Below, piece after piece: positions 3,001-60,500 of a stretch of 64,000 nt of DNA (position 1 is the stretch's first letter; each line of letters opens with the position of its first letter). Location of the stretch: NCBI RefSeq assembly GCF_002571385.2, contig NW_019218214.1:159203-223202 (forward strand), written 5' to 3'. Under the pieces are notes generated by a model. The model worked only from the letters and a program-made list of their open reading frames with translations, was not told the DNA's origin and made no database searches. Made by a program: the position numbers and the translations under genes. Origin of the DNA: Stylophora pistillata. Lineage: Eukaryota.

Positions 3001-6000
3001 AGCACCATACCAGTCTCTGTGTCAACCACTGGCACATGCCTGTTACCCTCCGGTGTCTCGTCATCATCATAGTCAGACTTTCTCCTTTTCCTGTTTTCCT
3101 TCATTTGTTTCTTTCTTTGTTCTCTCTTGTGTTGTTGTACCATCTTTGTAAGACTGGCCACATACTCATCAGTCTGTCCCAGGAGGTATGCCAAACGTTT
3201 GTCTTTCTTCTGGTCAATCAGTTTTCTGTAGCCTTCTTCATCTTCAGCCTGTAGTCACAACAAAATAAGATGTACTCTGTACATTATCTATTATATGATG
3301 AGCTGAATTATGTATACATTGTGATTGGTTGTTTACTTAGGATAAAATGGAGGACAGATGCATAGATAATGTTGTCATTGATACATTTTTGTGTCTTTAA
3401 TATGAAAACCAGACAGATTCTGTGTTTCTGTGCATCTGTTCAGTAACAGATCAAAGATGAGGTTGAAATCTGATGGGAACAAGAGTAGCACACTCAGTTG
3501 CACCTTGCACACCACTTTTTTGTTCTTATCACATTTTGATGTCATCGCTTAAATATTACTGACCAAGCATACAGCAACATGGAATCTATATATTACTATA
3601 AGCACAACCATGTCAATAAAACAGTAAAAATAACTTTTTACCAAGTTTGCCACTGAATATGAAAAAAGAATTGTTTAATAACTTTGGCAATTCAATCTAG
3701 TTTGAAATGAGTTCAATTTAAAATTCCACTTAAACTACCCCATCTATACCAGACTCATTATGTCATGTTTCAAATCAAACATTACATAATTCATGCTACA
3801 AAATGTGCTGTGATGCTGGCATCTAAAACAGACCACAAAAAAACATACCATAAGCCTTCTCATTCTCTCTTTCTCAATTCTCTCCTCCTCCTTCTTCTTC
3901 TCTCTGTCTGTAATGGAGTGATAGCTCATCACAGCTCTATTAAGCTTCACCACCTTGGACTGGATGGAACGATGATATTCTCTGAAATCACGAGCATGCT
4001 GCAATATTGTGTTGAGGTACTCCTGATGTTTCTGTCTACGTTTGCGTTCTTGTTCCATCTTCTGCTGCTTTTCAAGTTTCTCTGTAATCCTGAAGGACAA
4101 GAAGTTTCAAAATATGGTTTTATCACGGGGAAAAATATGCACTTCCTTAACAGAAACTAATAAAGACTGATTGTAGACACCACAATAGAGCATTATTCTG
4201 AGTTTTTACAAGTAATAATTATTGATTCAGCAAAGTCAGTCTTGTGTTATCTAAACTCAACATGAACAATTCAGTATGGAAATCTTTTAACTGCTTGAAG
4301 TAAGTTTACAAACATCTCTTTCACAATGCCTCCAATTCATAATTTTAAGTCTTTATGTACATACATGTCCTCCTGTCATACTTGTACTTCTGATCATTCA
4401 GTACTTACATTTCCTATGTTATTTCCTGTCACTTTAGAGAATACCACAACATCAATAAAAATTTCTGCTTTAGAGCATACCTTGCTTCACGCAGGGACTG
4501 CTTCTTGCTTCGTTTGTATGCCTTTGAATTAAGAGCTGTCTCCAGTGTAGTGTCTCTTCTTGTGCAGGCCACAACTTCTGCTCTTAACTAATCACAAAAA
4601 GAATATATTGATTCACTAAAACCTTCTGTTAAACCTTTACAATCCAAGAGTCTTGATTGTAGTTTCTTTTTATAGTATTACCAATAAATCAAACATTAAA
4701 AATAAAGGAAATGATTCAAGTCTAGAGAAACAGTGGTCGCCATCTTCACGTGTTGTAGCTAGTAGCTATTAGAAACGCTAAAAAGCAACACTTTCCTCCA
4801 CAAAACATTACAATACTCTCGTAAACAAACCTGTTTCTGGAAGTTAAGCAGCCTGAGTGCTCTTAATTCAATCATGGCTTTCATTCGTAGATCATCAGGA
4901 ATACTCCCTGGAAGACCTTCCAGATCTCTGATACGCTGTACAATACGGGCCTGGATTCTGAACAAATAATGCAAGGAGGAAGCACAAAGAAACAATATTG
5001 TGGGTGACACTTCAGTAAAGTAAAAACAACTTACACTGCACAAGCTAGCTGTACCAGAGTTACAATGCATGTTAAAAATGTGAATGAAAATTCAAATTAT
5101 TGTGGTCAGTATAATGGTGGCAAAAGAATGTTAATTTTCAAATCCACTCTCAATAAGTGACTAGTAAGGTTACACAAATTTACACAGCTATAAGGAATAA
5201 CCCTGATAAAAAATACAAAGTTCTCTGAGAGACAATTACTTCCAAAAAAAATATATGCTGGAGAACTACTAATCAAATCTCGTAAAAGTTTATACAAACA
5301 ACACATTTATACATATCCAGTGTACCTCTCCATGTCACTGATATGAAAATCTACGATAAATATTACATGTACAAATTATGTAAGTTAAAAAAAATTCCAG
5401 AAAAAGATTTTTTATAAAAAAAAAGGCTTGAAACTATTATCAGTATCATTATTTACTCACTGGGTTTTCTTATGAGTTTCGAGGAAAAGGGTGTAGCTTA
5501 ATGTAAGTAGAAACTATTTTGGATATATCAACAAAGTTGAAGTGGTAAATTGGCCACCGTAACAATTACAAAAGCTGACGTTTCAAGCGTTAGCCCTTTG
5601 TCGGAGCGAAAGACGAAGGGCTCCGATGAAGGACTAACGCTCGAAACGTCAGATGAAGGGCTAACACTCGAAACGTCAGCTTTTGTAATCGTTATGGTGG
5701 CCAATTTACCACTTCAACTTTGTTGATATATCCAAATTATTTCGTTACTCCCACCGACGCAGCCCCAAACAGTTTCTTTCGAAACTATCAGCCTTTATTC
5801 ATAAGTAGAAATTAGACTGTTGTCAATGTTGTGTTGCCAATCAAATTTTTCATCTGACAGAACATCCCAGCCAAGGGAGAGTCAATGCCTTGATTAGGTG
5901 GCAGAACCCTCTGATGGCTTCATGTGTAACTCCACATTAGTTAATACAAGAGCTGGGAGTAGTCATACCTGTTTTCTCTTTCTTTCAGAATAGTAACAGG

Positions 6001-6576
6001 ATCAAGTCCAACAGGTTTAGCCACTGGTGCCAAGCGAGGCTTACTAGGCATCTGTATCCCTCCTTGAGTGGTCCCTGGGGTCTGTACCTTGCGCTGCTGC
6101 TGTTGTTGTTGCTGCTGTTGCTGTGCAAGTGCTTGCCGCTGCTGCTCTTTGAGCTTATGCTGCTGTGTTGCTGCTGCAATAGCACTGGCAGCAGCACCTT
6201 TGGCTGCCTCCCATGATGCAGGAGTTGTTGACTGGCTGGTTCCTGTTGCCTGTTTACTCTGTAGCTGTTGAGCTGGTTATAGAAGGAAAAATTATGAATT
6301 AATGTTCAAGTCCCCTAATATGACTCAAACCCCAGCCAATTCAGATGTTCAACCAACTAAGCCACGACAGAGAATCTGTGGACAAGCCAGACCATAAAGC
6401 AGGCTAAGTAGAACGTCTTCATTAACCTTTTAACTCCCATGAGTGATCAAAGCATTATTTCTCCCAACAATATCAATACAAAGTCAAGCAGGCAAGTGAT
6501 GAGAATAAAACAAAAATATTGATTTGTATAGGTAATCACATGATTTCGAGTGCAATTTGCAAATAAATAAGTAAAT

Positions 6577-57500: not shown

Positions 57501-60500
57501 CAATGCTTGTTCTGATACATTTTGGTTTATTAAACACTAAGCGATAATCGTGCCTTGAGACATCTGATTGATTCGCTAATATTTTCCTCTTTCGTTTCCA
57601 AGCTCTTACCTTGGCAACTCTTTTTGTCATCCGCTAGTTGATATCCAGGTCTACACGAACAGTGGAACCCAGTCTTTGTGTCGTGGCAAAAATGCAAGCA
57701 ATGACCATTGTGATCCTTGCATTCATTGATGTCTAAGAATGAAATAAAAAATATCAGAAGAATTGATGGAAAGTGTTCTAAAACAACACCCAAGCAATTC
57801 TGGATTAACTCAAGACACCACATTAAAACTCACGTAAATACAGGCGCCATGTTCTTATACTTACCGCAGTTATTTTCATCCTCTCCATGAGGGCAATCAG
57901 GATGTCTGTCGCAGACTTTGCTATCACCAATACAAACTGAGCTGCTGCCACAGCGAAATTCGCTAGCTTTGCACACTGAAGTGGTTTCTGTACAAAATTA
58001 ATAACAACAAAATACCCTGAATGCACGGTACTTTCTTTCTAAGACTAACTTTGTTGCCGGAGAAATCGAGATTGCATTAAATTCATAGCTTTAAATTGAT
58101 CGTTAGACTTTAATTTTAAGTGCATGCTTTAGATAAACAGCGCAATGCCAAAAATTACCTTAAATATTCATTTCTTAACATAACGTTTGTTTACTAAAAA
58201 GCAAATCATTTACGATGTGGGTCTTTATTTTGCCTCGATCGTGTTGAGCGCAAAGCTTTTAGACAGCATCGCATTTCCAGCCAGCTTTTGTACTTACTAT
58301 TAGAGTGACCTAGCACATCAACTGTTGAGCCTGGCCGCGACGACGCATGTGTAGTTGTTGGAGGTTGGGTAGTAGTACTTACAGACGGGGTTGGAGAAGC
58401 TGGGAGTAGGAAGACAATAGCCCAAGATCAATTAGTACATTATAAAGAGAAGGAACAGTTATTTATGGCTGTGACAATGGGTGAACACAATGTAAACACT
58501 TTATCTTTGCTCATACTAGAGCACGACCGCGGAAGTCAAACGGCAAACTGCACCAGTACCTCATGCTAAATACTGCGATGTCAAGATACTCAGTACTCAA
58601 GTATACATTCACTGATATCTGTCTAGGTTTTTTATTGTAAGTAGTTTAGTATTCTCATTGTTGTAATGTTCGTTGATGTGATATAATGAAATCTTATGTG
58701 ACGTAATGTGATATCATGTGATCCAGTGCGACGTAATCTGATGTCATGTGATCTAATGTAATGTAATGTAATGTAATGTAATGTCATGTCTGTGATCTAA
58801 TGTAATGTAATGTCACGTCATATGTAATTTTATATAATCCGAGTGCTGTTACTAATGTAATTAGTACAAATCATTGACAACATTTAAGCAGAATAGAAAC
58901 AAAAATTACATCTCAAAAGATTCTGACGTAAAAGCCAGCTAGCTTCAAAGCAAAGTTCAGTAGGCTTCGTATCAAGCCACGTGGGTAGGGCATCACAGCC
59001 CGTGTATGTTCCCAGTGCATTAGCGGTTAGTGGATGACATAGCATTTAAGGTTATGTTAAATACGTGCACATGCAACGATAAAGAGTGTTGAAATTAAAA
59101 GGCATGATCAGAACAGGGAACAAACAAGATGAAAGATAGTACAAAAGTCATCAATGAGTTGGGGAAAACTGGAAAAGAAGGCAAGTGGCTACGTTCAACA
59201 GATCGAGAGAAAAAGTGTTTACTGCTACTTTATAATTGACTGTCATCATACGATGAGGGAAAGATAATTTATTAAAAGAGTTTATTTTCAAGACTCGTAG
59301 GCTACTGTCATATATTCTTGGTTATCTTAAGTGTTTGGCAAATTATGAAAAGGCGATAGTTTATTTGACAAGGATTGCATTTTGATATCGCGGGAACCAT
59401 TTACTCGAGATCATGAAGAATTTAAGTGACTTTACAAGCTCTAGTGGTCATTTCGACCTTTCAGTTTGCAGTTATTTTAGTGACGCTTAAGATCTTGTAA
59501 ATGAATGCGCAGCTTAACTTAATGAAAAAGCGATAGTTTATTTGACAAGGATTACATTTTGATATCGCGAGAATCACTTACTAGAGGCGATAATGGAGAA
59601 TTTAAGTGACTTTACAAGCTTAAGTGGTCATTTTACCTTTCACTTTACACTTAATTAAGTGACGCTTACGATCTCGTAAATGCAAGCGCAGCTTAACTTT
59701 TGAGACAGGCGTTGCTCGAATTCTTACTAAAGGCGCCATAATCTAGTGCGAGGCTTGTGCCAATTGTGTCCCTGGTAAAAGCATGGCCGTGAAATTGCAG
59801 TGCAACATTTCTCAAGTAAGGTCGTAGTAGTAGCAAGTATGATAAATATTGTAAGAAATAGACAACTTTTTTTGAGACAAGTTTCGGCATGCTTATGCCA
59901 TCTTCAATCAACGAGTAACTGAACGCGAGTAATTTGAAGATGGCATAAGCATGCCGAAACATGTCTCTCAAAAAAAGTTGTCTATTTCTTACAATATTTC
60001 TCAAGTAATTCGAGAGATTTTCGAGCCAAGATTTGAGGAAAGACTGGGCCGAGTTCCATCAGTTTAGATACTTACGACAATTCCTCTCGTCACTTTCATC
60101 ACCACAGTCATCGTTGCCATCGCAACGCTGTACTGAGGGAATACACTGTTGATTGTCACATTGGAATTCCTGAGGCGTGCAACCAATGTTGCCTAAAACC
60201 AAAACCATAAAAGGGTTAGAGAAGGAAACCTAAGAAACAATTTTCCCTGGAAAATCAAAACCCTGGAAATCAGAAAACATGAACATTAATCTTTTTGTTA
60301 CCACAACTTGATTCATCACTTCCATCTCTGCACTCAGCTGTTCCGTCACAAATCCATTTTCGGTGAATGCATTGACTTCTGTCGTTACATAGCCATTCAT
60401 TTATGCGGCATTTAGGTGGGGGAGGAGTTGGTCGAGTAATAACTAGAATGCAGTGAAGTAAAAAATAACAAGTTACGAACTGAATTCAAAGGTTTTTGAG

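Follow-up and report, generated by a model that had tools for sequence, protein, structure and literature searches.

The window analysed here is a stretch of 64,000 nt from the coral Stylophora pistillata (assembly GCF_002571385.2, contig NW_019218214.1, positions 159,203 to 223,202 of the forward strand). It contains five short palindromic insertions, E1 to E5, which judged from their sequence are 5'-truncated, head-to-head stubs of four families of endonuclease-positive Penelope-like elements (PLEs), i.e. PLEs with a reverse transcriptase (RT) and a GIY-YIG endonuclease. An earlier note on this DNA had listed five such insertions, and all of them were recovered in place. Each has two inverted arms (89-156 nt, 90-100% complementary; in E5 two blocks of 38-41 nt), an outer direct repeat or target site duplication (TSD) of the length first reported, and extra sequence on one side. 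The division into four families also held, with E1 and E2 in family A, E4 in B, E3 in C and E5 in D. The extra sequence, or tail, is indeed one-sided; it is not unique, as had been claimed, being the common terminal 31-60 nt of the respective family. The arms of each family have one of two end points, the tail end (T) or an inner site (I), the latter lying upstream by about 60 nt in A, 32 in B, 33 in C and 36 in D, and our main finding concerns the way in which these two ends are combined.

Insertion E1 is bounded by TSDs at 5504..5513 and 5802..5811 (10 bp exact, or 13 bp with one mismatch). Its I arm covers 5518..5610 on the minus strand (positions -156 to -64 of the family A reference) and has a hammerhead core mutated to CCGACAA, while the T arm covers 5655..5801 on the plus strand (-145 to about +1; tail approximately 5742-5801). 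The centre is filled at 5620..5652 (plus strand) by an additional 33-nt restart on the hammerhead region (-153 to -121), the only place on the right side of E1 where the core is intact. The TSDs of E2 lie at 13416..13428 and 13672..13684 (13 bp, one mismatch). Its T arm (13429..13576, minus strand, -147 to 0; tail approximately 13429-13487) has a 5' end that truncates the core, and the template continuation matches the final 2 nt of the left TSD. The I arm of E2 (13579..13673, plus strand, -153 to -59) carries a hammerhead motif at 13582-13609 and overlaps the right TSD by TT. Family A is further represented by a single-arm copy at 10573-10757, which ends at the inner site, has no tail and is flanked by a 13-bp exact TSD. 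Older family A-like copies (78-91% identical) were seen at 19745-19911, 23401-23556 and 26111-26232, the latter two with a common upstream flank, apparently as a result of local duplication.

E3 (family C; TSDs 28253..28268 and 29012..29027, 16 bp with two mismatches) is atypical. Its T arm (28269..28855, minus strand, -588 to 0) has a hammerhead motif at 28352-28383 and includes, at about 28460-28795, the GIY-YIG-coding 3' end of the open reading frame (ORF). The short arm (28855..29010, plus strand, -220 to -65; hammerhead motif 28961-28992) ends about 32 nt short of the usual inner site of the family. In E3 the 365-nt spacer consists of the 3' end of the longer arm, which codes for the endonuclease and is 95% identical to family C; the spacer by itself gave no Pfam match. 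E4 (family B; exact 14-bp TSDs 52416..52429 and 52787..52800) consists of a T arm at 52430..52610 (minus strand, -180 to 0; hammerhead motif 52530-52564, tail 52430-52464), a centre filler at 52613..52640 (minus strand) that is a templated repeat of -180 to -153, and an I arm at 52638..52790 (plus strand, -187 to -35; hammerhead motif 52691-52725), which overlaps the right TSD by CCTT. E4 lies within a stretch that is transcribed mostly from one strand (52000-54770, RNA run X22). In E5 (family D) the TSDs at 59807..59819 and 59996..60008 are exact over 13 bp, or 17 bp with one mismatch. The T arm (59820..59934, minus strand, from -120), whose tail end matches the final 3 nt of the left TSD, contains a hammerhead-like motif with a mutated stem III at 59876-59907; the I arm (59934..59999, plus strand, -93 to -29; hammerhead motif 59934-59965) overlaps the right TSD by ATTT. 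The overlaps CCTT (52787), ATTT (59996) and TT (13672) had been reported before as a property of the truncated arm. They are real, but the tailed arm overlaps its own TSD by 1-4 nt as well, so that such microhomology is not peculiar to the truncated arm.

The PLE origin proposed earlier is supported for all four families. In longer copies of each family the arms run into frames of 311-465 amino acids with RT and/or C-terminal GIY-YIG motifs. Pfam found RVT_1 (1e-5) and GIY-YIG (2e-4) in family A, both domains at about 1e-3 in family B, RVT_1 only in family C and GIY-YIG only in family D, the match of family D alone passing the curated cut-off. In family A, RT and endonuclease are separated by a cysteine motif, which by the description in PMC8557442 is Neptune/Nematis-like; no such motif was present in the inspected frames of families B, C and D. 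A long inverted pair of family A (L430:1100-3979) combines a T arm of about 1.2 kb with an I arm of at least 1.58 kb. The architecture itself is already known and the insertions are further PLE members: inverted pseudo-long terminal repeats (pLTRs), a one-sided tail of 30-40 nt and a TSD have been described for endonuclease-positive PLE insertions (PMC3846280, PMC8557442), and opposed minimal hammerheads have been published as well.

The combination of the two ends within one insertion follows a strict rule. The distance between the two end sites is 31-37 nt in families B, C and D, and the 5' ends are variable. Searches with the four families yielded 83 distinct inverted pairs in 330 loci (top-scoring matches, in which young copies are over-represented), after exclusion of three loci with a third terminal arm inside an inverted pair (L121, L127, L155). 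A TSD, mostly of 12-15 bp, flanks 53 of these pairs, and 52 of the 53 combine one T arm with one I arm (T+I); the exception is E3. When queries without the tail were used, 172 arm ends divided into 85 T, 85 I and 2 others. Free choice between two equally used sites would make half of the pairs T+I, yet all TSD-flanked palindromes found with these queries were T+I (32/32, for which independent choice gives 0.5^32). Symmetric pairs showed no direct TSD (0/11). Two of them, the I+I pairs L188 (family C) and L259 (family D), have no TSD and mirror-image flanks of about 356 and 287 nt, respectively, and may have arisen by fold-back inversion or as artefacts of the assembly. The same picture emerged when 763,580 unselected bases were scanned with no reference, in a search that superseded a first, over-strict de novo motif scan: all 11 distinct TSD-flanked inverted repeats had 26-70 extra nt on one side only, and a hammerhead motif was detected in four of them. 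Although A, B and C all have ACGU in stem III, a set of 430 loci showed no TSD-flanked pair between families A to D. Three distinct loci with neighbouring arms of different families (L071, L080, L212) were considered as cross-family pairs, and none is a TSD-flanked chimera as far as checked. In L071:1499-2367 a family C arm stands head to head against an old family A arm with no TSD, probably as the result of two events, and L080 is a T+I insertion of its own. No published statement of strict T+I pairing was found in the text covered by the literature search; the supplementary Figs S1-S2 of PMC11167929 may be relevant here.

Among the 52 T+I pairs the I arm is the longer one in 22 and the T arm in 16, with both within 10 nt of each other in 14. 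Either arm may thus be longer, so that neither is simply copied from the other. All 52 centres are distinct: 20 show an overlap of 1-7 nt, three are blunt and 29 contain fillers, those of E1 and E4 being templated restarts. The junction microhomology on which the earlier note had relied lies above chance at both outer ends, with means of 1.98 nt at T and 2.39 nt at I compared to 0.76-0.95 nt under three null models (highest of 300 replicates 1.41 and 1.64, respectively). This test used the 44 of 52 insertions with an exact TSD and left out eight with a mismatched or over-long one. The TSDs have a GC content of 26% (genome 39%). Both arms of a pair usually belong to the same subfamily (permutation test: B 13/13, p 0.001; C 7/7, p 0.028; D 10/12, p 0.017); two further subfamily sites are weaker (C 4/5, p 0.29; D 7/8, p 0.07). 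Arm-to-arm conversion is an unlikely cause of this agreement, since over 8,746 sites in 51 pairs only 5 private variants are shared by the two arms while 151 sites differ between them. Random pairing of RNAs from different loci is therefore excluded as the rule, and two RNAs from the same locus remain compatible with the data. As a separate observation, in the TSD-flanked family B locus L155:1097-1770 the I arm is followed by the T arm copied in inverted form together with 21 nt of its flank, after which comes the T arm itself; this order can be read, among other ways, as a template switch to the other newly made strand.

Dual, coordinated priming is well supported. The earlier proposal that both nicked target ends prime reverse transcription at two different sites agrees with the T+I pairing in 32/32 cases, with microhomology at both ends and with in vitro data on PAc, a Poseidon element of an Anolis lizard, in which both strands are nicked and extended and two internal starts bound the tail (PMC11167929). 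We consider it somewhat more probable than not, at roughly 0.55, that in one event both nicked target strands prime reverse transcription at T and I, likely on one uncleaved RNA. A protein dimer would nick the target 12-15 bp apart and hold both start sites of one RNA, so that the tail would correspond to the segment separating the two RT active sites. Since both PAc starts are internal, the tail end is probably not the 3' terminus of the RNA. The T-primed RT would then displace the I-primed cDNA, displacement by a PLE RT being our proposal, or re-read the RNA afterwards. The 3' ends of the two cDNAs would be joined by microhomology or by a templated filler, and the common single-arm copies could be cases in which one cDNA was lost. 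It had been claimed that such insertions need two RNAs or a circle; this does not follow, as a single RNA re-read by a displacing RT fits too.

Several points weigh against the one-RNA scenario. The overlap of the two arms has a median of 112 nt and reaches about 1.1 kb, so that one RNA needs strand displacement or sequential re-reading. Other RTs do displace strands. Two RNAs of one active locus would give same-subfamily arms just as readily, and one insertion with a clean TSD (L118) has arms that differ at three linked subfamily sites; L048 is likewise mixed, with no TSD and an adjoining gap. Tail-only T arms, once taken as proof of one RNA, were dropped: T arms stop near the I site in 2 of 52 pairs and I arms are equally short three times, which is no real one-RNA signature. 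Read-through of the tail into an ORF was not found, and no intact pLTR-ORF tandem junction occurred in 20 longer stretches with many N gaps. In families C and D a long common sequence lies 3' of the tail; it contains no ORF and is probably a duplicated flank. The family B template beyond the tail, and hence the T value of this family in the microhomology test, derives from a single copy that continues for 7 nt. N gaps are frequent in the assembly, six symmetric pairs touch one (6 of the 8 T+T pairs), the centres of E1 to E5 are seen in the assembly only, and homogenisation of long, near-identical arms during assembly might be the source of the subfamily agreement. Finally, PMC11167929 observed neither a strand preference of the start sites nor homology at the start.

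The best surviving alternative is dual priming on two RNAs of the same locus, or on two repeats of a tandem or circular RNA, by an asymmetric protein dimer with no hammerhead bridge. We regard this as possible but rather unlikely. Two templates allow overlaps of 100-1,100 nt with no strand displacement and account for L118, and circular or multimeric templates have been proposed (PMC4209133). T+I pairing fits as well, provided that the dimer is asymmetric; the predicted PAc dimer, in contrast, is described as symmetric and head-to-tail (PMC11167929). Two templates must also explain why the same site is almost never used twice (32/32 T+I) and why the arms share their subfamily in 30 of 32 pairs.

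Improbable in our view is a scenario in which a hairpin forms first, by self-priming fold-back as favoured in PMC3846280 (there on an antisense template), and the endonuclease then trims it asymmetrically at T and I. Its single template would explain the same-subfamily arms, it suits the 1-7 nt overlap in 20 of 52 centres, and PMC8557442 suggests that the tail arises by endonuclease resolution. However, plain fold-back from a T-primed cDNA cannot yield the 22 of 52 pairs with a longer I arm, and cDNA fold-back as a general route was ruled out on this ground. The fillers in 29 of 52 centres, some of them templated restarts, and the microhomology at both outer ends also speak against a hairpin, and in vitro both strands were extended directly from two sites (PMC11167929).

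The hammerhead motifs invite a further alternative. That every arm carries one had been overstated: core and palindromic stem III are present on 7 of the 10 arms, and the exceptions are the left arms of E1 (the mutated core), E2 (cut within the core) and E5 (ACUUGU). The extra nucleotide after the core and the ACGU or ACAUGU stem III were confirmed in all four family references, in which stem II has 3-5 bp and stem I 2-5 bp, with base pairs that differ from one family to another (n=4). An Rfam scan of the window returned no hammerhead family at E values up to 5, so that the identification of the motifs relies on pattern and stem pairing alone; an Rfam hairpin match to a plant microRNA was dismissed as a resemblance in shape. 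In a count of 294 arms, obtained with queries that favoured arms covering the hammerhead region, 264 cross the putative cleavage site intact and two begin within 3 nt of it, on which ground cleaved RNA as template was rejected. The 5' ends of arms concentrate a short way upstream of the hammerhead; of the family A arms, 11 of 60 begin at exactly -156. This position is likely the RNA start, where many arms would run off the 5' end of the RNA 6 nt before the hammerhead core. Read ends did not pile up at cleavage sites in one RNA run (X22), a weak test given the fragmented library. A pile-up of RNA ends at 52598, near the 5'-end cluster of family B, comprises 8 of 30 molecules in one run and was too thin to be used. 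Haplotype switches at the cleavage site of family D were considered as a sign of circles and abandoned, as the few mosaic haplotypes could not be resolved.

We think it very doubtful that the substrate consists of two RNAs paired through their minimal hammerheads by the palindromic stem III. The retention of ACGU/ACAUGU and of compensatory pairs in stems I and II in all four families speaks for it, as do the 5' ends directly upstream of the hammerhead and the description of minimal hammerheads as cleaving weakly and as dimers (PMC4209133). Against it stand the rarity of mixed-subfamily arms (2 of 32 pairs, one next to a small deletion), the lack of TSD-flanked cross-family pairs among 430 loci, the scarcity of arm ends at the cleavage site and the lack of a read-end pile-up there in one RNA run. 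Catalytic hammerhead mutants of PAc leave insertion unaltered (PMC11167929), though pairing itself lies outside their reach. Taken together, the ribozyme-bridged RNA dimer put forward by the earlier note is not supported by our data. A variant, to which we give equally little credence, treats the minimal hammerhead as a pairing signal: two transcripts of the same locus, joined through stem III, would be loaded onto an asymmetric RT-endonuclease dimer and primed at T and I, respectively. If this were true, every insertion would start as a two-RNA, two-primer event.

The least credible explanation is that the assembly created the palindromes, or that they are a unit mobile as such in the manner of a palindromic miniature inverted-repeat transposable element (MITE): the genome is assembled in 5,513 gapped contigs (398 Mb) and the two I+I palindromes with mirror-image flanks may be artefacts, whereas the TSDs, the fixed asymmetry, the 52/52 distinct centres and the 151 sites at which arms differ argue against it, and a palindromic master element is ruled out by the one-sided tail together with the distinct centres. 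Read contigs from three runs of two studies also enter E4 or E5 from unique flank. Contigs of X1, X2 and X6 enter E5 from the left, X2 and X6 enter E4, and X1 exits E5 into the right flank, each reaching 24-29 letters into the insertion under a 31-letter rule; X1 may represent the source sample, and some of the runs holding the stretch are labelled as coral metagenome.

Compared to published PLE insertions, the coral copies share the head-to-head truncated arms, the tail at one end, the TSD and a GIY-YIG domain after the RT (PMC3846280, PMC8557442). They differ in being mostly stubs of 180-750 nt with no ORF and in the tail of about 60 nt in family A. The accessible text of both studies calls the tail optional and gives no count of pairings. 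PAc and the coral families are alike in their AT-rich targets and in the two starts bounding the tail, and the PAc template is an uncleaved RNA. A protein dimer is predicted for PAc. The accessible text of PMC11167929 neither pairs the two starts on one target nor links them to inverted copies (the word 'inverted' occurs once, for a blocking base), and its lack of homology at the start contrasts with about 2 nt at both ends in the coral. Minimal type I hammerheads of metazoan PLEs are described with an extra nucleotide, a palindromic stem III and opposed pairs 100-700 bp apart (PMC4209133). The coral motifs agree in the extra nucleotide, the G10.1-C11.1 pair, the palindromic stem III and the placement on opposite strands; their cleavage is putative, and the cores of families A (CCGACGA) and D (UUGAAGA) deviate from the CUGANGA described there. 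Non-long terminal repeat retrozymes are likewise short, non-coding and PLE-related with a type I hammerhead, but form head-to-tail tandems (bioRxiv 10.64898/2026.07.22.740005). The coral insertions have a head-to-head order, are built anew at every site and are collinear with coding PLEs; identity with retrozymes was rejected in view of the inversion of the arms and their continuation into PLE coding sequence.

A familiar parallel is the twin priming of LINE-1, where a second nick primes internally on the RNA and leaves an inverted insertion within the TSD. The second priming sites of LINE-1 are variable and the arms barely overlap; in the coral both sites are fixed and the arms overlap extensively.

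Two other features of the window deserve mention. A tRNA-like sequence (Rfam, 39 bits) within 29660-30728 adjoins a long degenerate inverted repeat (29735-29943 versus 30518-30728), and a satellite rich in GACA/GACT, which has a higher-order unit of 86 bp and is broken by an N run, extends over 42374-46576.

The origin of inverted ends and of the one-sided tail in PLEs is called unresolved in PMC8557442. Strict T+I pairing from the same source copy ties the two start sites published in vitro to the inverted copies found in genomes and yields a sharp question for the bench, namely whether one RNA or two are used. Such insertions amount to about one stub per 70 kb in this coral (11 in 763,580 bases) and can be mistaken for MITEs or microRNA hairpins.

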